The position numbers and the translations under genes were made by a program. Below the pieces are notes generated by a model, which saw nothing but the letters and a program-made list of their open reading frames with translations, did not search any database and had not been told where the DNA came from. This document shows, piece by piece, positions 21,803 through 50,068 of a stretch of 64,000 nt of DNA; the stretch's first letter is position 1, and each line of letters opens with the position of its first letter. The stretch comes from Eubacteriales bacterium (GTDB lineage: Bacteria; Bacillota; Clostridia; Oscillospirales; CAG-272), in assembly GCA_045589435.1 (NCBI GenBank), contig JAZNPB010000140.1, positions 1,428-65,427 on the forward strand, read 5' to 3'.

Positions 21803-22189
21803 TTAAGCAGGACGGAACAGCTTTTGCGCAATTTCTCTTAAGAATCCTAAAACATCCAGATCGTATATCGTGATCACGCTATGGGCAATAAACAGACATA
21901 TTGCTATAACGGACAGTATGATAAGTACCTTTTGCCAGGTCTTAAGAATACGTCTTGAACCGTTGGGGTTAATGGTAGGCTTCCAGTCGTTAGGAGAGTA
22001 TCCCATTGTGTATCTACGGTAAGAAGCACTACGGTCGCCCGTGGCTTGAGCGTACTTTTTCATAAGACGCTCAAGCTTACGGTTAACTTCCAATCTCTGC
22101 TTTTCAAGCTTTTCAACCTCATCTCGTCTCGCGTTAATCATGTTAGAGGACGAAAGGTTTGAATCTTTATACTTTTTTAATTGTTTCAT
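21803..22189 (-). CDS. small C-terminally anchored coiled-coil protein (128 aa)
   Basis: TAAGGAGG RBS overlaps the giant gene stop (15-nt gap). Basic helical N-terminal part, one TM (VLIILSVIAICLFIAHSVITIY) and a 25-aa tail. Confidence 0.6.
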   Translation of the reverse strand: MKQLKKYKDSNLSSSNMINARRDEVEKLEKQRLEVNRKLERLMKKYAQATGDRSASYRRYTMGYSPNDWKPTINPNGSRRILKTWQKVLIILSVIAICLFIAHSVITIYDLDVLGFLREIAQKLFRPA

Positions 22190-22204: not shown

Positions 22205-25200
22205 TTACATTAACATAGATTTGATCTGGTCGATATAGGGTTTTACCATTGGATAGATCTTTTCATATACGCCATGTATCATGGTGAAGAGTTCATCTCC
22301 AAGAACAAGATATGCAGCGAGCAATACACCTGCACCGAGAAGTGCCACAAGACCTGCGATAGCAATGAAGTCGTGAGATGCATCAGGACCGTAGTAGTCG
22401 TTGAGAATTGCTCTCTTTCTACGTCTAATCTCTCTATCGATAAGCTTGTTGTTTCTACGAGCTTCCTTCATATCTCTCTTGATCTGTGAAGTTTCAGCAA
22501 TGCTGTTGCGCTCTTTTCTCAGTCTGTACTTGCAAAGGTCGATAGTTGCAAGTGCCTCAACCTTCGAGTCAAGCAAGCTGTTGAAGATATGGATCTTCTT
22601 TGCTCTGCCCTCGCCGAAGCCGGGAACAGTACGTTTAAGAGCGTCTGCCTTAGCCTTAAGCTTTCTTGCATGCTTCTTAGCAGCAGATACCTTGATATCA
22701 CGCCACTTTTCGCTATCAGAAACACCCGCGACGTCGCCAAGAGGTCCGCTGTAGATCGCATTAAGCTTGGAGTTAAGTTCATCTCTCTTCTTAAGCAGAT
22801 CGCTTACCTCGTAGATAATGCTGTTTACGCGCTTCTTCTTTGTATTATTATCGCCGTAAGGAGCGAGGTTGGTATCAGTTCTGAGAACTCTGTAATAACG
22901 CTTGTTATCGAAGCTCTCGAACTTGAGTGCCTTTGCCTTTTCCTTCTTAAGTGCTCTGAGTTTACGCTTGATAAATGCTTTTCTCTTATAGTTGTGAATG
23001 CTGTTCTTCGCAAACTTATAAGACATTATTTCTCTTTCACTCTCGAGAAGTGCCATCTCAAACTTGTAACGGTTTTCGATCAATGAAAGGTCATTCAGAT
23101 CCTCTTCATCGCATCTGTTAAGAAGCTTGATATCTGCTCGGTAACGATTTTCCTGATGGATACGGTTATCTTTCTTCTTTCTGCGTTTGCCCTTTCCTTC
23201 ATCTTTCTTAGGTTTATCGTTAGTGTCTTCGTTCTTCTTGTCACGTTTCTTGCCTTCGTGCTTCTTATCGCGAACTTTCTTTTCTTTCTTTGTTCTTCGC
23301 TTGTTGTCTTTCTCAGGCAATGCCTCGTTAGTTTCCGTATAGGTAATTCTCGTGAGATGCTCATATGCCTCACCAGCAAGAACTCTCTTAACAATACTCT
23401 TATCCGCAAGAGGAATATTGGAGTTTGTCATCTTGTTGTACTCTTTGACATAATCATTGTAGCATTTAATTTCTCTTGCAAGGATCTCTGCATTGGTTCT
23501 TGCGAGTTCCATAGCTTTAGAATAAACACAAACATTGATTCGCTCAATATAATTCTCACAGATTAAGCACTGATTATTAATCAACGCAATATGAGCTTTA
23601 ACCTTATCAGATGCCGATGTGTAAGAATCTCTCTTCTTCTTTGCATAGCTACGATCGAATTTGAGACGATTGATTTCTTTCTCTGACTCTTGGAGATGAC
23701 GAGTCATACCTCTGCCTGCAAGCACACCCATATTGCCCTTCTTGTACGGATCAATAAGAACGTCTACGATAGGCATATCGCCACGGATAACAATCTCAGT
23801 TCCATCATATGGTATAATGTTGTCCTTGAGCTTGTTTTTCACACCGCTTTCAACCTGGATATACATCTCGCTGCCGATTTCCTCATATACGAGAGGACGC
23901 TCGGGAATCTTATACTTATCCTTATCGATTATGTACTCGCTGTCGATCTCCTCGTAAACAAGAGGCTGTTCAGGCATCTTATACTTATCAGAATCAATAA
24001 TATGTGCACTATCAATCTCTTCGTACGGAAGAAGCTTATCATCGCTGAAGGTCTTATGTTCTGCTGCGCCAACCTTATGGGTCTTATCATGTCTTTCAGC
24101 AACATTGAACTTGCCCTTGCGCTTCTTACCGAAGACGGTTACGTACTCAGGTTCGCGATCTTCATCTTCCTCAACCTCGGGAATCTCTTCCGTGATCTTG
24201 TAAGAATTCTTGTTCTTTGCGGACTTAGTAGCCTTAGTCTTTGTGCCGTGTACAACTTCTTCATCAGGAATTGCGATAGGCTCAAATTCTTCTTCGTCCT
24301 CAATTTCAGCTGCCTTAGGATTAGGTGTTTCTAAGATCTTATAGCTTGTGTATGCAGCAGACTTATCAACGGGTTCTTCTACTGCCACGTCGGAATCGGG
24401 AGCAAGAACTGTGATCTCATCATCACCGAACGGTGCATCAGGATCAATAGGTGTAAGCTCTTCAAATTCTCCGGGCTGCTCATCAATAGTTCTGACGTTA
24501 AGGCTTTCAAGGAGTCTGTAAGATTTTGCCTTAGGAGCTTCAAGAACTTTGAAGTCGTCAGAAATTTCAGAAGTTACGGGAGTTTCCTCTGCGATAGCAG
24601 ATTCTTCCTCTGCAACAACCTCTGCCTTAGGCTCAATATCAGGACCGTGGTAGATAACGATAGGCTCGTCATCGATCACGTCTTCTGTGGAATCTTCCAC
24701 AGGATTTTCTCTTGCATCAATAACCTTTCTGCGAGACTCATCTATTACAATACCACGCTTTTCAGCCACAGGCTCGTCGGGAAGAACTGTTACGATCTCG
24801 TTATCATATACAACCTCTGGCTCTGCCTCAGATTCCTCTTCCTTAGCGGAGATAACCTTTGGAGCAGTTTCAACAAGAACGTATGTGTTGTTAGCCTTAG
24901 GTGCAGTGATAACTCTGGTTGCGGAGATGATAGTTTCGGAATCTTTAAGCTCGGATACAACCCTTGCAGGTTCATCAGCGATTTCTTCAACATCATCAAC
25001 AACTGTAACAACCTCGTCGCCTGTATGATCGGGAGCGTCGATTGTGAACATGTTGGATACTGCTTCTTCTGCAGAAGCTTCAGGCTCTGCCTTTCCGCCA
25101 ATAACAACGGTCTTGTTGCTATCCTCGGAGAGAACGTAGCCGGTAGCCTTAACAGTCTCTGTGGGTTCTTCTACTACTGCTGCGCTATGTTCTGTTGTTT

Positions 25201-28200
25201 CAACAACTTCCTCAGCAGGAACTACCTGCTCGATAACAACTTCCTCTGCAGCTGCAGCGGAAATAACCTTAGTCTTATTAGAGTCTTCTGTAAGAATGTA
25301 TCCTGTATAGGTCTTTTCAGGTTCGGTTTCAGGAGCTTCGGAAACTTCTTCTACAGTCTCTACTTCATCGGGAAGAACTGTTACGATTTCCTCACCGGTG
25401 TGAAGAACCTCATCAACAGCGTCTTCCTTAACAGGAGTTTCTCTGAACTTCTCTGTGATTGTGTATTCGCCGTTTGCCTTTGGAGCTACAACAAGCTTTT
25501 CTTCAATAGGAGCATCTTCCATTGCTACTGCAGGAATGATAAGCTCGCTATCCTCATGAGACTTAACTGCATAGTCAAGCTCAAATCTTGCTTCGATAAC
25601 CTTTGTCTTGGAAGGGTCGATAGAAAGCTTATAGCCACCCTTATCGATCTCGGTTACAGGCTCTGCCGCAAACTTCTTCGCAGAATCGGGCTCCTCTGTA
25701 ATTACGAACGCGCCTTCAGCAGTCTTTTCGGGAGCTGCCTTCTTGGTCTTTTCAGCTGCTTTCTTAACCTTTTCAGGTACAGCCTTCTTAGCCTTCTTGG
25801 AAGTTGCCTTCTCCTCTGTAGGCTCGTCGTCGGAAACAACGGTTACGATCTCTTCGCCAACGTGAAGAATTTCATCTTCAACTGCAGCGGGAGCTTCAGG
25901 CTTAGAAACCTTTCTGATTTCTTCTGTAATTGTGTATTTGCTGTTAGCCTTGGGAGCTTCAACCTTTGTAACGGTTGTCTGTTCGGGCTCTGTAGTAGCA
26001 GCTCTCTCTACGATAACCTTTGCAGAGGACTTATCCTCGGTGATAACGCGCTTTGCCTCGTGTACAACGATCGTTCCAATGCTATCGTAATCAGACTTTT
26101 CAGTCTTTTCAGCAACTTCAACGTCGCTTGTAAGAATAGCGTAGGAATCTTCCTCCACAGGTTCGCTGTGAACTGCATTTACGGATTCAGGAGTGATAAC
26201 GGATACGTCATCAGCCTCTGTAAGGAATCCGTCTTCCTCATCAAGAATCTTGCCGGGCTCGCCTCTCTGTGCTGTCCATGTGGATTCTCTCTTTTCCTCA
26301 TGGATGGAGTATGCGCCCTTCTTTGCCTTGGTTGTCTTCTGGGCGCCGCCCTCGATAACCTTGGTAGATTCTTCGTCTATCACAACCTCGTGAGCCTCTT
26401 CGCCGGCTGGGATAGTCTTTGTATATTCATCAAGAACGAAAACTTCATGCTTTTCCTCGTCAGAAGGTGCCGCCTCAATTGTCTTGGTGCTGTCATCAAG
26501 AACAAGGATCTCGCGCTTTCCTTCTGCGTCGGATGCTGCATCGATAACCAACGACTGATTGTCAGCCTCAGTTATTTCATATACAGTAAGAGGCTTTTCT
26601 GCTTCAACAGGTGTTGCGGAAACGATCTTCTTACCGTTTTCGTCAGATGTTACTGTGTACTTAAGCTCGGATCTGCCTTCGATCTTCTTCGCCTGTGCAG
26701 GATCTACGGAAATCTTGTATGTTTCCTTTTCGATCTCGGTTACAGGTGCCGCCTCAAATCTCTTTGCAGAATCGGGCTCTTCGGTAATGGTATAGCCTGC
26801 CGCGGTCTTGGGTGCTTCTGCTACAGGAGCATCTTCAACTACGGTTACTATTTCATCACCTGTATGAAGAACTTCATCTTCGATAGCCGCAGGCTCGGAA
26901 GCCTTGGGAGCTACTCTGATTTCCTCTGTGATGGAGTATACGTTGTTACCCTTAGGTGCGCTGATTGTTTTAACCTCGGATACCTTTTCAGGAACCTTAG
27001 CTGTAACGATCTTTGTTGCATCCTCATCAACGGCAACAACCTTCTGTACGGGAGCTTCTTCAACAGTTGCTTCCTCTACAGGAGCATCCTCAACCACTGT
27101 TACGATCTCTTCACCTACGTGGAGAACCTCATCAGAAGCCTCGGGAGCTTCCTCAACAGCAGCTACGCCTGCAATAGTCTTTGCCTTAGTAGGATCAACT
27201 GTGAGTGTATAACCGCCCTTAAGAGGAGCTGCTTCAAAGGTCTTTGCAGAGCCGGGCTCTTCTGTAATAGCGTAGGTTCCTTCTGCCTTGGGAGATTCGG
27301 TAACCTCGGTTACGATCTCCTCTGCCTCGTGAGCTTCGGTATCGATAGCCTGATCTACTACGAAGCGGCGATCGTCTGCGATCTCATCAGCGGGAGCTTC
27401 AGATTCAACAGTCTGTCTGAGTTCTTCTGTGATTGTGTATGCGTTATTAGCCTTTGGAGCTTCAACAACTCTGGTTTCTCTCTTTTCGATAACCTTTGCA
27501 GAAGCCTCGTCAACTACAACGTCGCGCTTTTCAGCTGCAGGCTCATCTGCAAGTACGGTTACAACTTCCTCGCCTTCGTAAACGACGTCGTCTACTACTT
27601 CAGCTACAGCCTCAGGCTCTGCTGCCGCGGGAATATCTCTGATATCCTCGATAAGCATGTATGAGCCGTGCTTCTTGCCCTCGATAACCTTTGTTGCGGT
27701 TGTATCGATGGTGATTACCTTTTCAGGAGCAGCCTCGGAAACAACCTCCTCTGCGATTTCATCAACAGGACTTTCCTCTATGATCTCAGGAATAGTTCCG
27801 TCAAACTCAACTTCCATAAGCTGAGGCTCAACTGCTTCTTCTGTTACAGACTCAACAGTTTCCTCATCAGCTACAGCTTCTTCAGCTACAGGAGCAGATA
27901 CAGGTTTTCTGAATTCTTCGGTGATCGTGTAAACGCCGTATGCCTTTGGTGCGGAAACTACCTTGGTCTCGGTAGCCTCTGTTGCAACTTCGCTTACTTC
28001 GTCATCGAGTACCGCTACGGTTTCTTCTGCCTCGGAAGTAGACTCAACTACCTCAGGTGCTTCCTCTACCGTAGGAGCCTCTTGAGGAGCCATTTCTCTG
28101 ATCTCTTCAGTAATTATATATGAACCTTCAGCAGCAGGTGCCTTGATGGCTGCACCTTCAATAACCTTCGTTGCCTGGGTGTCAATTACTATCTTGCGAA

Positions 28201-31200
28201 CCGCAGCAGGAGCTTCCTCTGCAGGTGCTTCGGATGCATCGGGCGCGCTTTCAGTATCAGATGTAGACTCAACAGTTTCAGGAGCTGCAATGTCAACTAC
28301 TTCAACTACATCAGAAGTTCCTTCAGCTCTTTCTTCTGTTTCTTTTATGTCCTCTGTAACATCATGAACAACCTCTTCGCTTGGAGCTTCAGCTACGCCT
28401 GCAAGCTTGAGAGCAGAATCAGCGTGTTCAACAATTACATAAGATTCGCCATTACCCATTCCAGCGATCTTCTTCGCTTCGTCGGGTTTTTCGGTTAAAA
28501 TGTAACCTTTAGTTATGGTTTCGATAGGTTCTGCATGAGTTTCCTCTACTTCGTCAGTAACGGTCTCTTCAGAATCAGGTGTTTCATCAGCAGGAGCTTC
28601 CTCTGTGGTAGCAGCCTCAACAACCTTTTCGATCTCGGGCTCTGCTACTGCCTCAACTACCTCTTCTTCTGCAGAATCTTCTGCTTTTTCTGTTATTACG
28701 ATGGTGTCACCGTATTCGGGACGATCAGACTTATCAGCCTCTACCTGGTGGTCGGAGGTGAGAGTCGCGTACTCGGAAACGGGTTCATCGGGAGCGCTTT
28801 CGGTAGCAGGAGCTTCTTCTACAGATTCCTCTGCTACAGTTTCTTCGCCAGCTGCACGAACAGGAGGCTCAACAGAAACGTCCTCATATCCCTCACCGGT
28901 GCTCTCGTCGGAAACGTCAACCTCGCCGGGCTCAACTGCCTCTGCAGACACAGGAGCTGCCAGAACTTCTTCAGCTTCAGCTACTTCCTCAGCTACTTCT
29001 TCAGCCACTTCCGCAACAGTTGCGGGAACGGATCTTGAGAAGTCCTCGGTGATTACATATCCACCGTTGCCCTTAGCCTTTTTGGAAACCTTTGCTTCGA
29101 CAGCTGCGGGTGCTTCGTCTTCAACAACTGTTACGATCTCCTCTGCAGCGTCAGCCTCAGATACAGATTCTTCAGCTGCAGCCTCTTCGGGTGCCTCTGG
29201 AACAACGATCTCACGAATTTCCTGCTTAATGGAAGATGGGATCTCGCATATCAGTTCTCTGCGTCCATCCTCGTAAACGAGATAGTAAGCATCGTTTTCT
29301 TCTTCAATCTCCTTACCGAGAGATGCGAAGACGAATATGGACAGGTGGCTAATGGGAACAAGGTAAATGTGTTCCGATGTAATTCTATCGATGATAGAGT
29401 CTTGACTCTTTGCAGCATCTACGGAAGACATATGCTTTCCGAGCATAGACTTCACGATGTTTGCATAAGCTATGGCTCTGATCTCATCGGTGATTCTGGG
29501 ATTATTGATATTACTTACAATGTCCTTACAGAACTTGATAAACTTGTTATCGTAAGGAATCGCAATGTAAATGTGTCCGTTACCGTCAGTATCCTTGAAG
29601 TCGGATACCTGAGATCTGGTGTTTGCACCGTAAACGTTGATGTCACATTTTGCGGAGAACTTGTGCTTCTGGTATCCATTGTAAACGGATCTGATAGCGC
29701 TTGCAAGCTTTCTGTCGATCTTGAACTCGCCAAGGTCATTACCCTTGAGTGCCTTATAGGAGATTGCGGCTCTTGTATCGCCGTTTGCCTCAAGTGTTTC
29801 ACAAAGCTTTGTAAGTGCTGCCTTGTCGAACGCCATGTTGAAGGCCTTAACCTTCGCAGGAATATCAACGAATACGATAAGCTTGAAGTTTTCCTTATCG
29901 CCATACTTATGAAGTACACGGCGAAGTTCATTTACTTCAACGGTAGTAACTCCGCTATTATGCTTAACGGTAGCGTTAACTACGTTAATGATAGGATCCT
30001 TTTCAACTTCTTCAGCAGTTGTACCTGCGTACGAATAAGTTACGTAAAGGTGAGAATCAAACTTATAATCACGAGCACTGTAATTTATGAGATCGTTAAC
30101 GTTCATGCGCTGTGCGCCAGGCTTGGATTCCTCGGAACTTGCGCCATCGGAAACGCTCTCAACGATCTTATAACCACTCTTCTTTGTGATTACCGTAGGA
30201 TCTTCCTCAACAGGTGCATCCTTATATGCTTCTACGATTGTATAAGCGGGCTTATGAGCTCTGATGATAACGTTTTCAGGCTCTTTTGCCGCAGTTTCTT
30301 CTGCGGGAGCTTCCTCTACAGGCTCGTCATCAACACGAACAGGCTCCGGCTTATCAGTAGGAGTAACTTCAGGAGCGTCGCAAACAACTACGTCATCAGC
30401 AGCATCCTTTGCCTTCTCTACAGGAGTTTCGTAGATTGCATAACCCATGCTGTGCTTGGGTGCGGGAGTTTCTTCTGCCTCGGGAGCAGGCTCCTCTGCA
30501 GGAGTTTCCTCAACGGGAGTTTCTTCAACAGGTGCATCCTCAACTACGGATACCTCACCTGCCTCATCTCCCTCGGGAGCAGTTTCTTCAGCAGGCTCTG
30601 CTACGACTTCGGATACTTCCTCTGCCTCGCCCATTGGGATAGTATCAACGTCATCCTTTTCACCGGGAACAACGTCATCAACATCAAGAATGTATCCCAT
30701 GAACTCCTCAGCAGTTGTTTCAGGAGGAAGATCAACCTTAACCGACTTCATCTCCTCGAAGTTCTCGACAATGTGACGATGTCCTTCTTCTTCAACCACT
30801 ACAGGCTCTGCTTCCTTATTGATGAGACTTGCATCTGTTACTACATATGCATTGATAGGATTCTCATCATCGGGATTTATGATAATTGGAATTACATTTG
30901 CGTTAGGATCGATAGTTGTCAAAGGCTTAGCCTCAGACTCAACTTCGATAGCCTCTTTTTCTTCTGCTTCGGCAAGAGTGAACTTTGCAAGCTTAGGAAG
31001 AACTGTATCGGAATCCTCAACGTTCTTTGCACTTGCGCGAGCAATGTGTGCCTCAGCGATCTGACCCTCTGCAAGAGGTACTGCCTCGTAGCTCTTATCG
31101 TCTGCGCGAGCGATCTGAACTGCGGCAAGCTGACCAATAGCTGCCTCACCTGCATCATAGGTCTTACCGTCTGCCTTTGCGATGCTTGCTTCAGCAACGT

Positions 31201-34200
31201 GGCCTACTGCTGCATCGGTATCGGAAACAGTCTTTTCATCTGCAGATGCAAGAGTGAATGTAGCAAGCTTAGGAATAGTTGTTTCTCTATCATCTGCCGC
31301 CTTCTCACCTGCATGAGCGATTTCAACTTCTGCAAGCTGGCCGATCACAGTTTCGCCTGCATCATATGTCTTACCGTCCGCACTTGCAACGTAAACGTCA
31401 GCGAGTCTACCCTCAACAGGTGTTATCTCGTCAAATACCTTTTCGTCTGCGCGAGCGATCTGGGTTTCAATGATCTTGCCCTTGATACCATCGTTGGTTT
31501 CAAGAACTCTGGACTCTGCACGAGCAATATCAACTGTAGCAAGTCTACCGTCAACCACTACCGCGTCAAATGCCTTTTCATCTGCGCGAGCAACGTCTAC
31601 TGCTGCGAGTTTTCCGTCAACAGAAGCTACCTCGCCAAGATCTGCTACGTCTGCACGAGCGATCTGAGTTTCGATGATCTTGCCCTTGATAGTATCCTTG
31701 GTTTCGAGAACCTTGGACTCTGCACGAGCGATATTAACCTCTGCAAGTCTTGCTTCGGCAGAACCTGCATCACCAAGAGTTACCTCGTCAGCACTTGCAA
31801 GATCTGCATCAGCGAGTTTGCTTTCAACATGATCTGCATCGCCGAGATCAGCAGCGTCTGCACGGGCGATTTCTACACCGGCAAGTTTAGCGTCAACAGA
31901 AGCTACCTCGCCAAGATCTGCTACGTCTGCGCGAGCGATCTGAGTTTCGATGATCTTGCCCTTGATTGTGTCCTTAGTTTCGAGAACCTTGGACTCTGCA
32001 TGAGCGATCTTAACCTCTGCAAGTCTTGCTTCAGCAGAACCTGCATCACCAAGAGTTACCTCGTCAGCACTTGCAACGCTTACTTCAGCCAGTTTTGCCT
32101 TAACGTCAGCTACCTCGCCAAGATCTGCCACGTCTGCACGAGCAATCTGGGTTTCAATGATCTTGCCCTTGATAGTATCCTTTGTTTCAAGAACTCTGGA
32201 CTCTGCACGAGCAATATTTGTTTCTGCAATTCTGCCTTCAACAGAATCAACGTCACCTGCATCCTTTATATCAGCATGAGCGATATTAGTAGCAGCGATG
32301 TGACCGATGACGTTATCAGTTTCGCTTGTTTCTACTGTTTCAGCCTGTGCAACTGCGGATTTAGCAACGTGTCCCTCTGCTGCTACAAACTCGTCGCCGA
32401 TCTTTGTATCAGCCTGTGCAACGACAACGTCCTCGATAGCAAGCAGCTCTGTGGGAGCAGATTCTTCTATCACCTCAGGAAGTTCAGTCTTAATAACTGT
32501 CTTAATATCGTGGTCCTCGATAATGCGAGGCATGTAAGAATAGTAATCAGTTTCAGACTCGATGCTTTCTTCGGTAGTTCCTACATTATTATTGATAAAG
32601 CGAACTTCAGTATGGGATCCTTCACCATCTGCAAGAGGAGCAGACTCGGAAAGAGCGCTCTCTGTTTCGGGAGATTCTTCGGATGCTTCGCCATCTATGG
32701 GAGTAATCATCTCAACGGAAGCAGCATCCTCATATTCCATCTCAAGAACTACGCCTGGGATAACCTTCGCAGAGTCAACGTCCTCAAATATGATAGGTGT
32801 ACGAGGACGGAGATAAGAGCAGATCTCGGTTACTACTGTATCCTTGAAGGTATCACAGCTTGTAACGTAATCAGCAATTTCTTCGATAGTTACGCCGGTT
32901 TCACCGATATCAATTCCGCGAGCGGCAAGATATTCAGCGATAGCCTGATGAAGTTCTTCTTTGGTTGTATCTTCAGGTATACCGGAAATTATTCTTACTG
33001 AATCCGCATCCTCATAAATACGAGGATAAATGAATGGAATAAATTCTGTATACTCTGTGGTTTCAGTTGTGGATTCGGTGGAATTAAGGTAATCAGCAGA
33101 TGCGGATGCAGGCTCTACGGGCTCTACAGACTCGAACATGGAAGAATGAACAACGTCATTATCTGCCACTACTCTGGAGAGAACTTCTTCGAACTCTTCA
33201 TCATCAACTACGGAGATTATACTGTCATCCTCGAATACGGGTTTAGGTGTTTCGGCTTCCTCACTAGCTGCGGGAGCTTTTTCTTCAGCAGGTGCTACAG
33301 GTTCGCCGATAACGGGACCTGTTTCATCTCTTGAAAGCTTAGCGCCCTCGTCCAGAGGCTTAGTTTCTTCTTTTGGAGCAGCCTTTGGCTCTTCTGCAGG
33401 AGCTTTTGCTTCCTCAGTAGTTTCAGCAGCTTTTTCAGGAGGTGTTACAGTAACATTATCAAATACTTCAACGTGTCCGGGCTCGGATGCGCTTTCTGCA
33501 CTCTTGGGAGCCACTTTATCTGTAACTACCAGCTGCTTGCCCTCAAGGCTCTTAAGAAGATCGTAAACGGGACAAGTGAGAGGTACCTGAACCTGAGGCT
33601 GAGCCTTTGCTTCCTCCTCGGGCTGTGCAGAAGATCTAGACTTTTCAGATACGATACCCTTTACGGAATCGTCTTCTCTTGCACCATAGTTAATGGGAGA
33701 ATCAACGCCCATTCCTGCGTAAGGAGCGGAAGTGCTGGAAACAGCATCATTTACATTCATGCCACTGCGGCCCTGACCACCGTAAACTACAGAATCAGCA
33801 GCAGCTGTTCCTTCACCTGCGCCCTGTGCTGCATCAGCAGTGCTTTCGCCCTTGCCGTCAACGCGTGTGGTTGCATCAACATTTTCGAAGATGTAAGGAA
33901 TATTAGGCATGATAAGCGTGTCACTCTCTGCAGCATCAGCCTTTTCAGCATCTGTCGCGGGAGCTACGCCGTCTTTTCTTGCAGCTTCCTTTGCATATTC
34001 AGCAGCTTCTTTTGCATACATTGCTGCTTCTTTTGCATATTCAGCTACGGATTTATCATCTGCTTCAACATCAGCAACGACAGCAGCAACAGAACCGTCT
34101 GCCTCATCCTTTGTGCCTGGGATTACCAACGCAGCGTCTGCATCCTCGAAGATACGGTTCATAAGAGGACGAATCGCGGACTCATCTTCCTCTGCGCTTG

Positions 34201-37200
34201 CCTTTTCCTTCTCGGGCTCTGCTACGGTAGAAGCAGCAGTCTTTTCTCCTGCTTCCTTAGCTCTGATGTATTCAGCAATTTCTTTTGCATACATTGCCGC
34301 TTCTTTTGCATATTCAGCGGCAGTCTTGTCATCTGCGGGAGCAGATCCTTCATTGGTGTCAGTAACTACGGCAGCTACAACTGCAGAATCGTCTGCCTTT
34401 TCTTCCTCGGTCTTTGTGCCGGGAATTACCAATGCGGCGTCTGCATCCTCAAAGATGCGATTCATAAGAGGACGAAGCTTGGACTCGTCTTCCTCTGTGT
34501 GAGCTTTTGCCTTTTCGGGCTCTGCTGCAACAGCGGTAGCCTCAGTTTCGGACTCTTTTGTCTTTTCTGCTGTCTCGAGAGTCTTCTCGGAAACAGCCTT
34601 TTCGTCTGCAGGAGCAGATCCATCCTTAGTATCAGCAACTACGGCTGCTACAAGTGTGGAATCCTCTACCTTTTCTTCCTCGGCCTTTGTACCGGGGATG
34701 ATCATTGTAGCGTCGGCATCCTCAAAGATACGGTTCATGAATGGACGAAGCTTGGATTCATCTTCCTCTACACGTACCTTTCCTGCAGCATCGGCAGCAT
34801 TTTCTGCACCAAGAGCTGCACCGTCAGCTGAAATAGCAACGGCATCACCGGATCTGGATTCTATTACCTTGCCGTTTGCAACGCACTCACCATCTGTGAT
34901 TACGATAGTAACATCAGCATCCTCATGGATGATTGGAGCGCCGGAACGGATGATAACGGTTTCATCAGATTCAACACCTGCTGCACCGGCAGCTTCTCTT
35001 GCGAGAGCATCAGCCTTTGCAACTGCCTCACCTGCAGGAGATTCTGCATTCGCCTTTGCAAGGTCAACTGCTTCTTTTGCATATCTTGCAGCTTCTCTTG
35101 CGTATTCAGCAGCTTCCTTGGCATAGTCGGCAGCGGATTTTTCTGCATCATCAGCTTTTTCGTCTGCAGAAACAGCAGCTATTACTACGTCTGCATCGGA
35201 CTTATCGCCGGAATCTTTACCTGCGATTATCAATGCAGCATCTACATCCTCAAAGATGCGGTTCATGAGAGGACGGAGCTTGGACTCATCTTCCTCTGCA
35301 CGTGCCTTTCCTGCTGCACCTTCAGTTTCGGTAGCATTTTCTGCACCGTCTACTGTCTTGTCAGCTGCATCTGTATCAGCCGCGCTCTTCTGGCGATCAT
35401 CGGATACTGCAGCGGATTTTTCTTTATCATCAGCTACTGCATCACTTCTGTCATCAACGAAGAGAACAGCCTCTGTATCGGACTCGCCACCCTTTGCGGT
35501 TTCGAGACCTGGGATAATTTTTGTGGAATCGAAGTCTTCGAAGATATAAGGAGTGCTGGGACGAAGACCGGGAACTTCAGGATCTTCTTCCTCGTCTGCC
35601 TCATATTTTGATTTTGATCTTAATTTAGACTTCTTGGAAGCCTTGGATTTCTTGGAAGCCTTTTCATCTCTGCCTTCTTCAGAGGAATCAACGTCATCTG
35701 CGCCTTCAGCGGAAATAACCTTCTCTGTGCCATCGGCAGAAACAACTTCCTTTTCAGCCTCGCCGGAAAGAACCTTTTCTGTTCCGTCAGCTGTAACAAC
35801 TTCTCTTGCACCGTCAGCATCAGCGCGCTGTACGCCCTCTGCCGCCTCAACAACCTTTGCATCTCTCTTTTCAAGAGTATAGGTAGTAGCGCCGGTAGCG
35901 TCGCTCTTTTCAGCAGTAATAATTTCATCTGCAGGACGAGCCGATCCATCAGCTGCTACATGGCGGCCTTCTTCATCAACTCTTGCATAATGCTCTGCTG
36001 CTGCAGCTTCCTTTGCAGTCTTGATTGCTTCTTTTGCATATTCAGCAGCTTCTCTTGCAGAAACAGCAGCCTCTCTTGCGGATTCGGCAGCAGCTCTTGC
36101 GGATTCAGCAGCTTCTTTTGCGGATGCAACTACCTCGCTTGTGTCAGTAGAATCACCAACAGATCTTGCTGCATCGGTGGATTCAACAACACCGGAGGTC
36201 TTTGCCTTATCTGCAGATTCCGAAGCACCGGAACCTACTCTTGTATCATCAGATGCTACAGAAGCTACAACAAGAGCATCCATACCATCTTTCTTATCAT
36301 CAGCAACGTCAACCTTGTTGATGATCTTTGTAGAATCAATATCCTCAAAGATGCGTGAAAGGATAGGACGAATGTTTGCTTCATCCTCTACGTCTGTGTC
36401 GGCAGATGTCTTTACAACCTTTCTGCCATCAGCAGTCTTTTCTGCGCCTCTATCGGATTTAGCAGCTGCCTTGTCATCGGACTTTCCGGAGCCGTAAACT
36501 TTTTCAGCATCTGCGGATTCGCTGATAGCACCTGCCTTTGTAGACTTGATATGCTCGTCAGCTACGCTATCCTTACCGGATCTTTCTTTGTTATCTGCAT
36601 CAACGTCGCGAACTCTTGCAACGTGGTAATCGTAATCGTCACTTGCAGTGCCGGGCCATGGAGCAAGATCATCAGAGATGTCAGTTTCAACAACGGGTGC
36701 CTCTTTCGCACCGGAGATAACAAGCTCGGAATCGGTGTATTCAGCTATATTGGTAGCGATCTGGCGTTTTTCGCCCTTTACGGCATCCTTGCTTGATCTT
36801 CTTCTATTGTCAGCTGCCTTATCAGCGCTATCCTGAGGTCTACCTTCAGATTCGCTGATCTTCTTTTCACCGGATTCAGCTGATGCGTCAGCACCGGCAG
36901 CTCTGTCCTCGGATCTTACATATCTTGCGGACTCTCCGGATGAATCTTTATGATCGGAAGACTTGGTTGCATACGCTTTTTCATCTGCGCTGGCAACGTC
37001 AACGTCAGCAATGCGGCCGTCTGCAGGTCTGCCCTGATCGTAATACTTTTCGTCAGCACCGGCAATTCTGCTGTCAGCGATGCGACCGTCTACAGGTCTG
37101 CCCGCATCATAAGTTCTACCCTCGGCACCGGCGATCTCTGCATCAGCAAGGCGACCTTCAGCGCCTCTACCGGAGCTATAGGTCTTTCCGTCAGCACCTG

Positions 37201-40200
37201 CAACCTCAACGTCGGATATGCGACCGTCTGCAGGTCTACCTGCATCGTAATATTTTTCATCAGCACCGGCAATTCTGCTGTCGGCAACACGGCCGTCTGC
37301 ATCTCTGCCGTACTCATAATATCTTTCATCAGCACCGGCAATTCTGCTATCGGCAACACGACCGTCTGCATCTCTGCCGTACTCATAGTATTTCTCGTCG
37401 GCACCGGCAATTCTGCTGTCGACAATGCGACCTTCTGCATCTCTGCCTGCCTCAGGAGCGTTTTTATCAACACGTACGTACTGTGTTTCTACGAGCTTGC
37501 CCTTGATGCTTGGATCAGTGTCAAGAACCTTGGAGTCTACGGGAACGATCTTGGTTTCTACAAGATAGCCCTTATCTGTCTTATGGGCAGACTTATCCTT
37601 GGTATCACGAGATTCAGCAGCACTGCCTGTGTATCTGGAGTCACGAGTGCCATCACCGGCGTATTCGCCTGCAACGCCATCGGATTCACCATGTCTCTTT
37701 GCACCGTCAACATGGATGCCTTCTGTTATCTCGATTCTTCCGCCTGCTTTGGAATCCTTTTCAGCAGATTTCTCTGTTCTGTCTGCAGACTCTCTTGCAG
37801 CATCGGCAGATTCGTCGGAAACGAAAGTACCGTCAACGTATTCACCTGCAGATCTATCTCTTCTTGCGTCGGATTCAGATGCGCGACCAACAGAATCAGC
37901 TGCTTCTCTGCCATCGGCAGTTTCTCTGCCGTCAACAGACTCGCCTGCGTATTCTGTATCTTTCGCGGATCTTGCACCCCTAGATGCATCGTCTGCAGTG
38001 GATTTTCTTGCTTTTGCGGTTGTCTTTTCTTCTCCGTCAGCTGTGAAGTCGTCGAAGTTAGTAACAGGTCTTGGCTTTCTGGAGTCAGCAGCGTCGCCGG
38101 ACTTATGGATTACAGTACCGTCTTCGTCGGAAGCTGCACTCTTATCACCGGAAGTTTCGTAAACGCCTCCAAAGGCATCTTCGGACGCATTCTTATCTAC
38201 GACAACAGAAGCTACAGACTGATCTGCATCTTCGCCATCTGTGGAGGATGTATCTGCGATAGGCTCTCTTGCGGTAGCATCTTCGATATTGGAGAATGGC
38301 TCTTCGATAGGCTCCGCGAGGTCGCCAGCCTGAGCTGTACCCTTTGCAGCAGAACCATCCTTTGCAGCAACCATCTGGTCAAGCTCGGATGCAACAACAA
38401 CAAGCTCATCAGAATCTTCGGAAGCATCTCTGCTTCTAACGTGAGCGAATGGATCAAAGTTAGCAACGTCATCCTTGTGCGTGCGGCTACCCTGTCCCTC
38501 ACCGGGAAGAGGAAGAATGAAGGAAGCATCAAATGCGCCGCCCTTACCGTCAGCAACGTATGTGTTATCCTCTTCACCATCTGCACCTATACCAATTGCA
38601 GGACGTACAGCATCAGCGCCGGCACCCTCGTAAGGAGCATCTTTCCATCCGTCGATGGTAACAGCAGCACCTTCGCTCTCTACGATGCGCGCGTTAAGAG
38701 GACGAAGAACCTTTTCGTCGCGAAGGATTTCTTCCTTATTATTAATAGTAGCATGCTGATCCGAGACATCTGCACCACTGCCGATTTCGTAGCCGTATTC
38801 TGCGGTCTGACGGCCCTGTTCTCTGCTCTGGGAATCGATATTGTATCCATCTCTTGCAGAACCGGAAATAACGCCGGGCTCTCCGGTAACGATAGTACCT
38901 GCAGCTGCAGGGATCTTCTTGGCAGAATCTGCCTCTTCAACAACTCGCTCGGAAATATCGCGCTTCGTTTCGGGAGCGTCGATAATGAACGTTGAAGGCT
39001 GTGCAGACTGAGCTGCCTGAGCCTGATCAACATTGGACATTGCAGGGATAAACATACCCTGCTGATTGATATAGGATGCAGGGAAGCAGATCATAGGCTC
39101 CTGAGGCTGCTGTGCCTGAGGTGCTACTGCGTTACGATCGGTTTCCGTGATCTTGTATGTGGATGTGGAGAGGATCTCCTGAGTATTTGCTGCCTGGGAA
39201 TCACCAATAACAACTACCTGACCCTGTTCAACACCTGTAGGACCTACAACCATAGGAGCTGCAGTGCTTACCGCGCCTGCTACAGGAACTGTTCCAAGAT
39301 CGTCGATAACAACTATACCTGCATCCTGAGGCTGTGCAGTACGTGTTTCCTTACCGAGCTGAACTATCTTTTCAGTTCCGCCCTCTTCGGTAACGATTGG
39401 CTTATCAAGCTTTGTAATATCATCAGAATCGGTAAACGTACCCTCTACCATGCCTGCGCCGTATCTTACGAGAGGAGGAAGCTTGGTCTTTCTGTTTTCA
39501 GCAAGATCCTTCGCGTAAGTATTATAAGCGCGCGGAAGGGTCTGACCTACTCTCTTTTCAACTTCGCGAGCGAGGTCATTATATACCTTGATTTCTTTGT
39601 TGATTCTGGAGGACAGACGTCTTGCCTTTGCAGTATCGCCTGTTCTGATAGCGTCGGTATAAGTATCGCCAAGAATAGCAATAACCTCACGCTGGTGGTT
39701 AAGGGCTGAAACGAGATGCTCTGTCTTCTGACCGTACTCGGTATTCTCAGCATTGCGCATCTGATCCTTGAAGTCGCCCTTATTCTCCTTGATAAGACGC
39801 TTGCTTTCTTCAAGTTTCTGGCGAAGCTCACGCTTGCTTCTTCTGAGCTCACGCTTGCTGATCTTATACTTCTTGCCCTTCTTGCCCTTGCCTGCTCTGC
39901 CGCCTACTGCAGCAACGCCGTCTTCATCGTTATCGATCTGGCTGACGTAGGAAAGAGGTGACTTCTTATCGCCGTCCTTTTCATCCTCGTAAAGGTCTTT
40001 TTCAAGGATCTGAGGAAGCTTCTGAATTTCTTTTCCTGCAAGAACGTCGTCAGGAAGAGTCGCAGACGCTCTTGTAATCTTATTGAGAGAATATTTTTCA
40101 AGCTTCTTTGCATAGCCGTTATACTTGTTAACGTCACGCTGAAGCTCTCTCTTACGAGAATCTGTATTTCTGCCAAGAGCTTTTGTAGCTGCAAGGCTTT

Positions 40201-42220: not shown

Positions 42221-42265
42221 GTTAAATTCCCCCTGTTTTACTTATATATTTTTATTAATAACACA

Positions 42266-43108
42266 TTAAAACTCCGATCCGCTGATCGCCGCACCGATTG
42301 CGGTAGCAAAGCCGGACCGTTCGGGTATTACGAAGTTAACTCCGTAACCCAAGGTATTAAATTCTCGGAATTTTCGTTTGCATTCTGCAAGGATGGTAAC
42401 GTTTCCTGTGAGGATTATGTCCTTCACCCCTCTGGATCTTGCAGCGAATATGGAAACCATTCCAACCACCTCGTATACCAGATTCATAATTCCAAGAGCG
42501 ATATCACTTTTCTCTGCCGAGGAGGAGAGATTTGCAAAATTCGAAGCCGTAAGGTTTCTGCTAAGTTCCTCTAGAGCATCTCCGCGAACCAGATCCTTGA
42601 TCCTGAGGTCGATCTTATCAAGATTGCCTCCGTCAGCGAGCTCTGCTATATCGGAGATATTGTCCGAATTGAGCAACAGCTTTGAGAGCCCCATCAGCGT
42701 TCCTCCGCCAACCCCTGTTCCACCCAGGTATTCGTAAGCTCCGTCAGGCATCGTATGTACTATTGCAGTACCGGTACCCATACTGACTACGAGAGCATTA
42801 TCAAACCCCGATAAGTACGAGCCGCCTTTTGCGATGCATTGGAACTCCTCTACCCTATGGCAGTCCAGACCATAAATACCGCCGCTTATGTGCGAAGCGC
42901 CAACCCCCGTGATCATCACCTTGGAAATGTCCGAGAGCGAAAGCCGATTTTCATCGGTGAATCTTCCGAAAGCTCCGTAGGTAGCGGTGAGCGGATCGTT
43001 TGCCGTGATAACCATGGGCTCTATCCATTGTTTTTCACCACCGTTTTCGCAGAAGCCAATTATTTTCGTAGTGCTTCCACCGACGTCTATGCCTATAATC
43101 GTTTTCAT
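42266..43108 (-). CDS. coaW: type II pantothenate kinase (Fumble/CoaW-type)
   Basis: IGIDVGGSTTKIIGF phosphate-1 motif and GGTGVGGGTLMGLSKLL, typical of type II PanK. Confidence 0.75.
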   Translation of the reverse strand: MKTIIGIDVGGSTTKIIGFCENGGEKQWIEPMVITANDPLTATYGAFGRFTDENRLSLSDISKVMITGVGASHISGGIYGLDCHRVEEFQCIAKGGSYLSGFDNALVVSMGTGTAIVHTMPDGAYEYLGGTGVGGGTLMGLSKLLLNSDNISDIAELADGGNLDKIDLRIKDLVRGDALEELSRNLTASNFANLSSSAEKSDIALGIMNLVYEVVGMVSIFAARSRGVKDIILTGNVTILAECKRKFREFNTLGYGVNFVIPERSGFATAIGAAISGSEF

Positions 43109-44230: not shown

Positions 44231-47200
44231 TCACCGTTTTATCTCAAGCGGCGTTTCATCTTGAGTTTCATAAAGTCTTGCCGCTATGGCAAACGCTATA
44301 ACGTAATAGAACGTGGTAAACACCTGGAAAACGTAATTGTCAAGAAGGCTCTCAACCGCCAGAACGGATGCGCCGAGAATCAGCATGAAACGATCAAGAC
44401 AGAACTTCTTAAACGCAAATCTGATAGTAGCAATACGGTAGAATCCGTAGCAAAGAGTACCAACAACGCCAGTCGCGGCAATAAGCTCGAAAATGGTATT
44501 GTGGGCGTATTCAGGGATATACTCTGCGGGAACAAACTGTGCAGAAACACGCATTCCAAAGAAGCCTGCTCCGAACACGGGATGTTCCTTGAATATCTCA
44601 ACGCATTCTTTCCATATGGTAGTTCTGCTGCTGCTTGATAATCCACGGTCAATATACTGCTTTACTACACCGTTAACGTTGGTGATAATAGAGCCCAATG
44701 CTCCTTCGGGTGCCTGGCCGGGATTGATATAATAGTAACCGAAGTATGCTACAAGCGCTATCACGATCGCTCCGATAATCATTCCAACTATTCTGCCGGC
44801 TCTCTTATTATTTCCGGCAAACATAGAGATAACAAGACAGATTATGAAGTACAGCGTACCCATGAGCATAGCGTTTCTCGAGGTAGTGGCACAACTGGCG
44901 ATCCAGAGAGCAAACGTCGTAACCAAGGAAAGGGCCGGCATCTTGCCTTTTATAAATCCGTAGAAGCTTACGGGTATCATGGTTGACACATGGAAACCAA
45001 CAAGCGTACAAACGCCGTATCCCATAGTCAGCGCATCACGATTCACATATCCGTTAACCAAAACACCATCAAAGATGTAAACCTTTGCAATTTGGATGAT
45101 GAGAATCCACGATGTTAATATAGTAATATAGATGAAGTAATCAACGAGTTTTTTAGGATCATCAAGCTTCAGACCCCAATAAATTATCACGTAAAGAACG
45201 AGATAAACCAGCATCATAAGCGCCGCCCACACAAGGTTCATAATCTTGTATTCGGGGTTAAATGCACCGTTAAGGAACATACCAACGGCAAAGACGCAGA
45301 GCGGAATTATCAGTGGTATCTTTGAAAGCTTTCCTCGGTAGAAGATCCTGTTTCTGAAGATGAATGCAATAAGTGCCACAAAGAGGATCACCATTGCAGC
45401 CATAAGAACGTAAGGACGAGGTCCTGTGTAGTAGTAATCAGATGGATATAGATGCTCCTTAGGAAGCTGATATGCAAAGGTGATAAGGAAAAACAGGAAG
45501 GGCTTTATCGTATTGGACTTGAACATCGCAAAGGAAACCAGGCAAACGTTCACGAATGCAAGGTACACCTCAAGTCCGGTAAGATTGCCTACAAGCACCA
45601 AAACAGCAACGATTATCGGATATATCCAACCGGTAAAGAAGTTCGACGTTGCCCTGCTCTTTTCCTGTGTGGTATCATAAATCTTTTTGTCGGCATCGCC
45701 ACCGGGTTTTGTACCAGGTTTTGTTTTTTTATCATCTTGGCGAGGCTTACGTTTTTTGATGATTACAGGTTCTTTTGTAAATGTAAGTTTGCATAATGCT
45801 GACTTATCAGCATATTTATCTACCTTTTCGAGTTTCGCGATCTTTTCATCATCAGGAACAAGTTTAAGATACTCGATAGGAACGAACTTGCTGATTCTCT
45901 TGTGATCAGCAAGATGAATTTCATCGTCGCGACTTCCTTTTCCACCCTTGATCTCATCTCTGTAAAGCAAAGCGGCTACAGCCACCAAAATGGTGTAGAA
46001 AACAGGGGAGAAAATCTGGAAATTGAAGTTATCCACAAGGCTGGAAACCATAACGTAAGACGCAGAAAGCATCAGCAAAAATCTATCCAGCGAGGCGCGT
46101 CTAAACGCCACAACAAAGGTTGAAATTCTGTAAATTGAGTAGCTGATAAAGCCTACGATACCCGTGGCTCCGAGAAGCTCAAAAACGGTATTATGCGCAA
46201 AATCAGGTATCAGATCCATGCCGAACTCTTTGTCAAACTGTGCAAATGAATTTGGCGTTGTAAGCTCGAGGGTGAAGAAGCCTTTTCCAAATATTGGGCT
46301 CTCAAGGAAGGCTTCAAACGCAGCTATCCAAAGAGTTTTTCTGCCGTTATTGCCCATTCCGCGCTGAATGTAAAGATCAATAATGGACATTAGCTGCTCG
46401 CGGAAGACGATAGCCAAAACGGCAACAATAGCAACGAATGCTATCAAGAGCTTTATCATCTGCTTTCCTCTCTGTCCGGAGACAATCGAGATAATGAAGC
46501 AAAGTATAAAGTAAAGGCCGCCAAATAGCATGGCGTTTCTCGAGGTAGTTGTCAGTGCTATTGCATAAACGCAAACGGCTGTAAAAATTGAGAGATACGG
46601 GCGCTTGCCCTTGATAAATCCGTGGAAGTTCGCGGGAATGAGCATAGCCACGTGCGCACCAACGATATTACAGCTACCGACACCGAGTACAATGAATTTA
46701 CGGTCGGAAACAGCGCCAAGAGTTGCCTCGCCGCTGATGAAAACGTACGCAACCTGAATTATCAGTACCCATGACATCAAAATTACAATGTGGTGTATGT
46801 AGTCTAGGAGATTTTTGCGGTTTTCTCTGCGCAAGCCAAGGTAGCAAAAAACGTAAATTATCAGGTAAACGAACACCTGACCAAGTCCCCAAAGCAAATC
46901 TTCAAGATCGTCGCCCTCAACCAAAAGTCCGTTAAGAAGCATCGCCACCGAGAATATCAAAAGCGGAATCAAAAGCGGTATCTCACGCCATGACACCTTA
47001 AAGAGCCTTGCTCTGAACACAAATATGACGAATGACAGAACAAGTATCGCCGCCGTTGCAATAAGAAGATATGGATTTATGCCCTCAAAATAATGCTTTG
47101 ACTCATAAGGCTTCATATACAGATGCCTGGGATTGAACTGCAGCATGAAGGTCATAATATAGAAAAGCATCGGCTTTATCGTCTTGGTTTTTACGATGGC

Positions 47201-47341: not shown

Positions 47342-47394
47342 TTGCGGCTCTCCTTTATAAAACGAAAATTCAAGAAAAAACAATTAGATATTTT

Positions 47395-49252: not shown

Positions 49253-50068
49253 TCAAAGATTTAAGAAATCCTTTCTGTACTTCACACCAAAGAATTCAGC
49301 AAGCTCTACCATTTCCTCATCTTTGATGGTATTGATGCGAGGGAGATGGGCTGTCAGCATATAGATTTCAGCTGCCTTTTCTACGGTTTCGATAAGACCA
49401 AAGGTTTCGTCCATAGTTTTTCCTGCTCCATAGATGCCGTGCATTCCCCAGACCACAAGGCGAAATTCCTTCATTTTTTTTGCTGTGGCTTCGCCAATTT
49501 CGTTGGTGCCGCAGAGCATCCAAGGGAGAACACCTATGCCGTCGGGGAACACAACGATGCACTCGGTGCACATTTCCCAAAGGGTGTGAGTGAATTTCTT
49601 TTCGTCAAGCTCATGAACATAGTTCATAGCCAGAGTATGCGTGGGGTGAGAGTGCATTACCACTCTGTTATCAGGATCGACCGAAAGGCGAGCGATATGA
49701 CTCATAAGGTGAGCGGGAAGCTCGCTTGTAAAGCGTCCGCCGTCTGAATAACCCCAGAGGAGATTTGCAGTCTTTCCGTCTTCTGCAATGCGGATTATAC
49801 CAAGATTTGTTTCGGGATCATCATTTACATTCTTAAAATATTTACCCGTTCCTGTAACAATAAAAATTTTGCCAATCAACGCCATGGCATCAAATCCGAG
49901 AGGAATCTGGCGAAGTGAATTGTCTATATCAAGATATTCTGCAACCTCATTTTCATCCAGCATATAGCTGATGTTTCCGCCGTTACGCTCATCCCAACCA
50001 AGACGATACATATTGGCGCAGGTCTTTATCATTTCTGTAACAAAGGGGGCTTCAAGTATATTTTTCAT
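49253..50068 (-). CDS. rhaD: rhamnulose-1-phosphate aldolase
   Basis: Class II aldolase. N-terminus ...MYRLGWDERNGGNISYML and His ligands (MHSHPTH). ATGA overlap with rhaA. Confidence 0.85.
   Translation of the reverse strand: MKNILEAPFVTEMIKTCANMYRLGWDERNGGNISYMLDENEVAEYLDIDNSLRQIPLGFDAMALIGKIFIVTGTGKYFKNVNDDPETNLGIIRIAEDGKTANLLWGYSDGGRFTSELPAHLMSHIARLSVDPDNRVVMHSHPTHTLAMNYVHELDEKKFTHTLWEMCTECIVVFPDGIGVLPWMLCGTNEIGEATAKKMKEFRLVVWGMHGIYGAGKTMDETFGLIETVEKAAEIYMLTAHLPRINTIKDEEMVELAEFFGVKYRKDFLNL

Follow-up and report, generated by a model that had tools for sequence, protein, structure and literature searches.

A 64,000-nucleotide (nt) stretch of DNA from an Eubacteriales bacterium (GTDB lineage Bacteria; Bacillota; Clostridia; Oscillospirales; CAG-272; assembly GCA_045589435.1, contig JAZNPB010000140.1, positions 1,428 to 65,427 of the forward strand) contains a giant open reading frame (ORF) in which a unit of 23 amino acids (aa) recurs in tandem. 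The question raised by this locus is what the unit is, how it folds, and how the run of units changes in length. The whole stretch of 64,000 nt is referred to here as the window, and the longer run of units as array B. The features on which the question turns are:

30929..32374, minus strand: array B, 21 tandem 23-aa units (aa 3283-3764 of the giant protein)
22205..42220, minus strand: giant ORF of 6,671 aa, ~720 kDa and isoelectric point 4.5, which contains both arrays of the repeat

Sequence comparisons support the view that the 23-residue unit is a previously undescribed, lineage-specific repeat family. With confidence only somewhat above even, we further favor a reading in which the units would be a beta-hairpin structural repeat that forms an elongated module in an acidic, probably tail-anchored megaprotein.

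Array B was delineated by iterating a hidden Markov model (HMM) from a seed of nine units and then phasing the units by hand. An earlier note on this DNA had described about 21 copies with a strict 23-aa period between 30975 and 32440. The phasing also gave 21 units, and a formal lag analysis of aa 3290-3760 confirmed the period (identity of 0.324 at lag 23 vs 0.097 in shuffles, z 17.5; z 15.1, 17.5, and 22.5 at lags 46, 69, and 92, respectively). The spacing is strict for 20 of the 21 units, with unit 12 (aa 3536-3557) having 22 residues, and the interval given in the note held a real array but lay ~46-66 nt to the right of its true position. The consensus of the units, G-[KR]-[LI]-A-[ED]-x-x-[IV]-A-[RHS]-A-[DE] followed by a variable, acidic half of 11 residues, agrees with the one proposed earlier. 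In the position-specific profile, which was computed on 20 units, alanine is invariant at positions 9 and 11 (20/20 each) and prevalent at position 4 (16/20). Glycine occupies position 1 in 13/20 units, glutamate position 5 in 11/20, and aspartate or glutamate position 12 in 18/20; position 2 is K, R, H or Q, position 3 is L, I or V, position 8 is I, V or L, and positions 13-23 are variable and acidic. Array B as a whole is 20% Ala and 11% Glu, with a grand average of hydropathy (GRAVY) of -0.13 and a net charge of ~-0.10 per residue.

Array B is coding and lies on the minus strand. The periodicity could in principle be that of non-coding tandem DNA, or could belong to an opposite-strand ORF, since a plus-strand ORF of 1,218 aa (29345-33001) spans the array B region and antisense ORFs have been called over the orthologous gene of a metagenome scaffold (L007, described below). 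The translation of the plus-strand ORF, however, is Cys/Leu/Phe/Ser-rich nonsense. The minus frame remains open over 20 kb, is preceded by a strong ribosome-binding site and shows collinearity with its homologs, and the differences within the near-identical core of the DNA repeats are mostly synonymous in this frame. We consider the non-coding or opposite-strand explanation to be effectively refuted, with a negligible probability, and the plus-strand ORF to be a by-product of biased composition. The giant ORF starts with an ATG at 42220 and is preceded by:

42228..42234, minus strand: Shine-Dalgarno sequence AGGGGGA, 7 nt 5' of the ATG, read directly from the sequence

The same gene carries a second array of this family, which lies 4.6 kb from array B and outside the coordinates of the earlier note:

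36950..37570, minus strand: array A, nine units of the same 23-aa family (aa 1551-1757), unit GRxADSRIAGADEKYYxxGRxAD (GRIADSRIAGADEKYYDQGRPAD)

Array A is the more uniform of the two, its lag-23 identity reaching 0.72. The array B HMM scored 13-16 bits on each of seven array A units, and array A aligns with array B units 13-21 without gaps and in phase, the two having in common the two-unit signature SKVL[DE]T…IKGK[LI][VI]ETQ. None of the remaining ORFs of the window has this 23-aa repeat.

The unit has few detectable relatives. Pfam searches with the arrays alone, at E values up to 10, returned only sub-cutoff matches to DUF1269 (16 bits vs 26.9), DUF6751, FLIC_barrel, and RHS_repeat, and MORN, leucine-rich, IQ, STPR, and choline-binding repeats were absent from the Pfam scans even at E up to 10. 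A word-indexed search of 5.8 billion proteins with array B yielded one relative, P0001, a 302-aa fragment from a 1.5-kb metagenome contig. An exhaustive profile search of 1.84 billion representative proteins again gave P0001 as the sole true relative of the repeat. Together with the lack of a Pfam or NCBIfam match, this result bears out the suggestion of the earlier note that the unit does not belong to a described repeat family. Two other candidates were rejected: P0002 (1,587 aa), whose repeated domains carry the recurring motif EGRVAEIRIVSADGK, looks by eye like a Bacteroidetes-type surface lipoprotein, and P0003 has an 11-mer coiled-coil-like repeat. No relative of the repeat was found when the array flanking motifs were searched against GTDB genomes, in two scans of Joint Genome Institute (JGI) metagenomes (one with the array end and flank, one with a conserved two-unit core), or in a scan of viral contigs, and a search with a globular-looking region of the giant protein (aa 4037-4335) returned nothing.

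The ortholog of the giant protein was reached through the other end of the molecule. The C-terminal 591 aa have six unannotated homologs (E 7e-223 to 2e-29), and the giant protein has the trait of this family, a conserved C-terminal region of ~590 aa that ends in a transmembrane helix. One protein, P0004, is 61% identical to the giant protein in the C-terminal region and is located on a 30-kb metagenome scaffold, L007, where its frame runs more than 4,300 codons upstream of P0004 with two assembly gaps within. The L007 protein is collinear with the giant protein of the window at 33-40% identity. Its orthologous array consists of 16 units, a run of N, and ~14 more units (at least 30 vs 21 here) and is bounded by the same flanking motifs (upstream YMPxIIEDHD, downstream IPIIINPDD), which in the window are:

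32507..32545, minus strand: upstream motif YYSYMPRIIEDHD (aa 3226-3238), also found just before the P0001 and L007 arrays
30821..30898, minus strand: downstream motif NVIPIIINPDDENPINAYVVTDASLI (aa 3775-3800); the L007 equivalent at the same place is NIIPIIINPDDKPISAYIVTDAELI

Among the units of array B, array A, and 28 phased units of L007, spacing is 23 residues with two exceptions, the 22-aa unit of the window and one 24-aa unit of L007. The positions conserved across all three sets are G1, L/I3, A4, I/V8, A9, A11, and D/E12. Period and motif are conserved between these orthologs and copy number differs, a difference between species. In L007, ORFs were called antisense to the giant gene (L007:2320-4971 (-) and L007:7562-8806 (-)) in place of the real frame. 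Because of such calls, and because an assembly gap of L007 falls inside the array, the apparent rarity of the repeat in protein databases is partly an artefact.

The only informative match to the array in any annotated resource bears on its fold. A sequence search of the PDB identified the engineered Borrelia OspA chains 2FKJ, 2FKG, and 2HKD and related entries, with an E value of 7.4e-8 for the whole array and 2.2e-5 for a two-unit profile. The match is produced by tandem copies of an OspA unit, GELSEKKITRADKSSTEEKFNEK, which is also 23 aa long and is in register with the array on G1, L3, E5, I8, and R10-A11-D12, the motif common to both being G-x-[LV]-x-E-x-x-I-x-R-A-D-[GK]. Natural OspA contains one such hairpin, and the multi-copy versions are laboratory constructs. 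The constructs of Makabe et al. 2006 reportedly multiply a beta-hairpin of the OspA single-layer beta-sheet, as insertions that extend the sheet, and we take the three PDB entries to be beta-hairpin insertions of this kind into the single-layer OspA sheet. As a control for the mutual inflation of scores between periodic sequences, the 23 columns were permuted with period and composition kept and any cyclic shift allowed. The in-register OspA score was above this permutation null by 6.1 standard deviations for array B (0/5,000 permutations), 5.2 for L007, and 4.2 for array A. The array shares with OspA a 23-residue unit carrying the I-T-R-A-D-G/K motif. The giant protein otherwise differs from OspA: it lacks a lipoprotein signal and the globular caps, it has no match to the OspA family in Pfam, and array B exceeds the OspA unit in both hydrophobicity and acidity. 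We read the match as a motif-level similarity, short of established homology to OspA.

Properties of the unit itself also point to strands. Positions 4, 6, and 8 of array B are hydrophobic and positions 5 and 7 polar, which is the alternation typical of a strand, and turn propensity is most evident at position 1, with a weaker signal at position 12 and elevated values at positions 17, 20, and 21. Two AlphaFold runs gave only strands and no helix, at mean predicted local distance difference test (pLDDT) values, 45.7 with 7 alignment rows and 34.1 with 5 rows, that mark both models as unreliable. The first model has one long strand segment per unit (residues 4-18) and no hairpin; the second has a strand at residues 2-11, a turn at 12-13, and a strand at 14-17 in several units. 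Mutual information between unit positions, computed on 56 distinct units, revealed neither a hairpin anti-diagonal nor any other pattern, duplication history probably dominating the signal, and a staggered self-alignment of the units with MAFFT added no information, as rows slid back onto identical units.

We consider this moderate evidence for a beta-hairpin unit or, at the minimum, for a strand-turn-strand element. In the proposed arrangement, the first strand would span residues 2-11 and lead through a turn at the conserved A-D-x-K (positions 11-14) into the return strand, made by the variable half; the conserved G-[KR] at positions 1-2 would be the second turn. Consecutive hairpins would be hydrogen-bonded side by side to give one elongated beta-rich module, and array B, at two strands per unit, would be ~20 nm long. 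The array could then serve as a rod or spacer of fixed geometry, set between the megaprotein's other repeat modules and its disordered acidic linkers, a role suggested by the architecture of the protein.

Several observations weigh against a hairpin. The AlphaFold models, besides their low confidence, disagree on whether a unit is a long strand or a hairpin. Foldseek, run with the first model, returned no significant match (all E > 0.1, template modelling (TM) scores < 0.35), and its weak matches are beta-helices or solenoids and not OspA. The similarity to OspA lies mainly in the conserved N-terminal portion of the unit and may have arisen by convergence, and wild-type OspA was not above threshold in the PDB sequence search. 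The 20% Ala and 11% Glu of array B favor helix by simple propensity. Array B is also more non-polar than the OspA unit (~11/23 residues in some units, besides its GRAVY of -0.13), so that a two-layer solenoid is no worse a fit than a solvent-exposed single sheet.

In a beta-solenoid, each unit would be one coil of a two- or three-sided beta-helix, with A4, V6, I8, L16, and V22 turned into a hydrophobic core and the invariant A9 and A11 in a tight corner. Curli CsgA units and pectate-lyase-type coils of ~22-23 residues are examples of such structures. The strictly conserved coil length, the small residues at positions 9 and 11 in 20/20 units, and the relatively high non-polar content are in keeping with a solenoid, as are the single long strand segment per unit in the first AlphaFold model and the identity of the best, non-significant, Foldseek matches (left-handed beta-helix proteins, pectinase, tapirin, and VacA). 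These last two points depend on a model with a pLDDT of 45.7 and on matches that fall short of significance, however, and no known solenoid family was found in Pfam. Among sequence matches, only that to the OspA unit is significant, and the hydrophobic positions of the second half (16, 19, and 22) do not alternate as those of an inward-facing strand would. A solenoid is a possibility that we hold tentatively and at low probability.

Folds without beta structure are less likely still. An alpha-helical repeat would consist of a helix of ~20 residues per unit, broken by the Gly or Pro at position 1 and packed in a helical bundle or rod, as in the 22-mer apolipoprotein repeats or the 23-residue repeats of the DC-SIGN neck. 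Ala and Glu are abundant in the units, mean helix propensity exceeds 1 at most positions, every unit has a Gly or Pro, and units such as PKLAKFTLAEAEEKEAIEVESEA look helical by eye. On a helical wheel read by eye, however, the hydrophobic positions (3, 4, 6, 8, 9, 11, 16, 19, and 22) are distributed all round the helix and form no stripe. The units are rich in beta-branched I, V, and T, neither AlphaFold model contains a helix, and no helical protein was among the PDB sequence matches; we regard a helical array as quite improbable. The arrays could also be disordered acidic repeats that act as an entropic spring or polyanion, their periodicity reflecting only the history of amplification. The net charge, the very low AlphaFold confidence, the position of array A on the disordered side of the charge-hydropathy boundary, and the clearly disordered acidic Pro/Glu/Val-rich linkers in the rest of the protein would all be expected if this were so. 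Array B, however, lies on the folded side of that boundary, and orthologs that are 33-40% identical have kept the same hydrophobic and small residues at an exact 23-residue spacing. Old units that retain length and motif as other positions diverge indicate structural constraint and not drift, and a disordered array is, in our judgment, improbable, if marginally less so than a helical one.

A more specific form of the preferred hairpin repeat is that the arrays are natural, very long single-layer beta-sheets of 42 or more antiparallel strands in array B and 60 or more in L007, lying on the cytoplasmic side with no globular caps or hydrophobic core. We consider it unlikely that the arrays take this form. 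If they did, the TCP (G-box) domain of CPAP/SAS-4 could be a structural analogue. That domain is a natural, free-standing, elongated open beta-sheet that lacks a hydrophobic core of the usual kind, and the authors of PMC3776556 liken it to the engineered OspA self-assembly mimics (Makabe et al. 2006, as cited there; the mimics also appear in PMC9523718). The TCP domain differs from the array in being eukaryotic and much shorter, in binding a proline-rich STIL peptide, a function with no known link to this locus, and in having no detected sequence similarity to it. The RHS/YD repeats (PF05593), the ~20-22-residue beta-hairpins from which large shells are assembled, are a further comparison. A core resembling Y-D-x-x-G-R is common to the YD motif and the units of array A (KYYDQGRPADGRIAD), but the match of array A to PF05593 is below threshold (E 2.4, 9.1 bits vs a 22-bit cut-off). 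Array B has neither a PF05593 match nor a YD motif, and the giant protein has no toxin or Rhs core domain.

How the array changes can be read in part from its DNA, which contains super-repeats longer than one unit:

31581-31856 and 31857-32132: 276-nt super-repeat copies, 86% identical to each other
32064-32339: third 276-nt copy, at a 207-nt offset, 70% identical
31616-31753 (units 10-11) and 31892-32029 (units 6-7): most similar DNA pair, 132/138 nt identical

The starts of the three copies (31581, 31857, and 32064) are 276 and 207 nt apart, and all offsets are multiples of 69 nt. Tandem Repeats Finder reported a period of 276 bp at 31608-32140 (1.9 copies, 89% matches), and a lag of 483 bp, or seven units, also gave runs of at least 90% identity. 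The higher-order blocks of three and four units that had been proposed for the array are therefore found in the DNA as periods of 207 and 276 bp, with the seven-unit lag in addition. The 207-bp-offset pair of units 6-7 and units 3-4 is identical at 112/138 nt (81%), and units 7 and 11 encode the same peptide and are one synonymous base apart. The earlier note had counted about 7 of 190 differences between 31621-31810 and 31897-32086; the actual count is 13/190, the figure of 7 holding for the first 180 nt only (5 synonymous, 2 non-synonymous), and the other 6 differences falling in the last 10 nt. The near-identical part of the 276-bp repeat is limited to a core of ~140-200 nt.

In the variable half, units of the window match one another at 7.5/11 positions vs 5.3/11 against L007 units, and in the conserved half the two values are 9.1/12 and 9.0/12. 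Likeness within the window in the variable half, with an equal conserved half, is the pattern expected of independent recent amplification on an old, constrained unit. The near-identity of units 7 and 11, the likeness of variable halves, and the 21 vs at least 30 units in the two species lend support to the earlier proposal of recent duplication or gene conversion and of a substrate for length variation. Array length probably changes by whole units (multiples of 69 bp) through unequal recombination between super-repeats of 207, 276, and 483 bp, a mechanism that the pattern of repeats suggests.

The protein that carries the arrays is rich in Ala (13.6%), Glu (13.3%), and Asp (8.8%), has only 0.3% Cys, and also contains abundant V and K. 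A scan of all 6,671 aa against Pfam and NCBIfam gave no family at E < 0.01. A Kyte-Doolittle scan found the N-terminus to be hydrophilic, with no hydrophobic segment or signal, and a single strongly hydrophobic segment in the protein:

22295..22372, minus strand: sole strongly hydrophobic segment (aa ~6617-6642), with the basic stretch RRRKR before it and ~30 residues after it

Because the only hydrophobic helix is C-terminal and follows a basic stretch, and no hydrophobic segment is present at the N-terminus, the giant protein is predicted to be tail-anchored with its bulk in the cytoplasm, the orientation being that given by the positive-inside rule. It resembles Ebh-type giant surface proteins only in having a C-terminal membrane helix, with no N-terminal Sec/YSIRK signal and no FIVAR/GA-type modules by Pfam.

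The giant protein has a mosaic structure, in which acidic Pro/Glu/Val-rich linkers separate at least five mutually unrelated repeat families. These linkers (EETPVEETPADEPVAEE…) are long and clearly disordered and resemble the PEVK segments of titin. The other repeats observed are:

~32500-36350, minus strand: module [LI]RP…[RY]I[FIY]E[DN]xD[AS]…[IV]I[PA]G, ten copies ~70-290 aa apart (aa 1957-3240)
~33980-36100, minus strand: Ala-rich short repeats AAEYAKEAAxYAKEAA, five sites (aa ~2044-2746)
~24200-29060, minus strand: module APKAxxxY[TSV]ITEE, ~17 copies, often paired with V[VI]DExxxKVIE (aa 4388-6007)
23855-24031, minus strand: unrelated repeat, also with a 23-aa period, ~2.5 copies, LPYEEIDSAHIIDSDKYKMPEQP / LVYEEIDSEYIIDKDKYKIPERP (aa 6064-6122)

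The last copy of the [LI]RP…[RY]I[FIY]E[DN]xD[AS] module directly precedes array B, and its motif is kept in P0001 and L007. The APKAxxxY[TSV]ITEE module takes up most of the protein's C-terminal third, and Pfam gave no match to it.

In its general properties the protein agrees with the giant bacterial proteins described previously, which exceed 5,000 aa, are rich in Ala, Asp, and Glu, poor in Cys, and internally repetitive, and are fragmented in short-read assemblies (Reva and Tummler 2008 as cited in PMC10756260; West-Roberts et al., bioRxiv 10.1101/2023.11.21.568195). Size class, composition, and repetitiveness are the same here, and the L007 assembly breaks inside the array. The giants described there have recognizable Ig, Fn3, RCC1, beta-helix, dockerin, or SecA-like domains and usually a secretion signal or many transmembrane segments (PMC10756260; bioRxiv 10.1101/2023.11.21.568195), whereas the protein of the window has none of those domains, no signal, and only one C-terminal helix.

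Two genes adjacent to the giant ORF have counterparts at other loci:

42266..43108, minus strand: upstream ATPase gene, 45 nt from the giant ORF, with Pfam matches to Fumble (type II pantothenate kinase) and BadF/BcrA
21803..22189, minus strand: 128-aa ORF that starts 15 nt past the stop of the giant ORF and has its own hydrophobic C-terminal segment

Homologs of the Fumble-type ATPase that are 56-61% identical occur in five Clostridia/Eubacteriales metagenome-assembled genomes. At two loci, L003 (from sheep colon) and L006, the ATPase gene is followed by a gene for a large tail-anchored protein (L003:10859-18757; L006:10806-13961). The L003 protein (2,633 aa) is Ala/Glu-rich and has no Pfam domains, and its layout matches that of the giant protein, with a C-terminal helix after a basic stretch and a hydrophilic N-terminus. 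The large proteins of L003 and L006 consist of repeated helical modules of ~200 aa, each with an [AV]YN motif. Weak matches between the L003 protein and the giant protein are found in the N-terminal helical module and the C-terminal region, and L003 has no 23-mers. Since the L003 protein is related and yet lacks the 23-mers, the arrays are best seen as an insertion confined to a single sub-lineage within a larger, unnamed family. On the downstream side, L007 has a 128-aa gene at the same position (L007:12802-13188) that is visibly similar when the translations are compared side by side by eye, and L008 and L009 have a called gene of 128-aa size at that position. The ATPase gene is thus found upstream in L003 and L006 and the 128-aa gene downstream in L007, no single fetched locus having both. 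The 128-aa tail-anchored product may be a partner of the giant protein.

Other genes of the window were noted in passing:

48-1292, plus strand: large serine recombinase with weak matches to CcrA, XisF, and CcrB, adjoining a transfer RNA gene (1519-1590, minus strand) at the left edge of the window
44231-47383, minus strand: unusually long protein (1,050 aa), encoded two genes upstream of the giant ORF, that has a Wzy_C (O-antigen ligase) domain close to the C-terminus
49253-58790, minus strand: rhamnose-utilization cluster, with class II aldolase, L-rhamnose isomerase, rhamnulokinase, a glycoside hydrolase family 1 (GH1) beta-glucosidase, alpha-L-rhamnosidase, and a GPH-family transporter

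An integrated element could have its border at the recombinase and transfer RNA gene. The rhamnose-utilization cluster, which has an AraC-type regulator and a GH3 glycosidase in its vicinity, fits a plant-fiber-degrading gut bacterium. Judged by the neighboring genes and the homologs, the bacterium is an uncultured member of Clostridia/Eubacteriales from a ruminant-type gut.

Tandem structural repeats that expand and contract by recombination are familiar in giant bacterial proteins; what is new here is the repeat family and the orphan megaprotein that carries it. The host is a 720-kDa protein of gut Clostridia with no recognizable domain and a predicted cytoplasmic, tail-anchored topology, and such proteins are largely invisible in protein databases through assembly breaks in arrays and antisense gene calls of the kind seen in L007. 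The motif-level link to OspA and the possible occurrence of a very long natural open beta-sheet are the main grounds for experimental interest. If the predicted fold is true, the array would be a new natural beta-hairpin repeat with an unusually strict period, and could serve as a model for the solubility of long open beta-sheets or narrow solenoids and as a modular scaffold with a length determined by the number of copies. If the single-layer form were true as well, the arrays would be the longest natural soluble open beta-sheets known, made of the type of 23-residue hairpin whose artificial multiplication in OspA served to mimic amyloid-like assemblies, and would offer a natural answer to how cells prevent the aggregation of such sheets.

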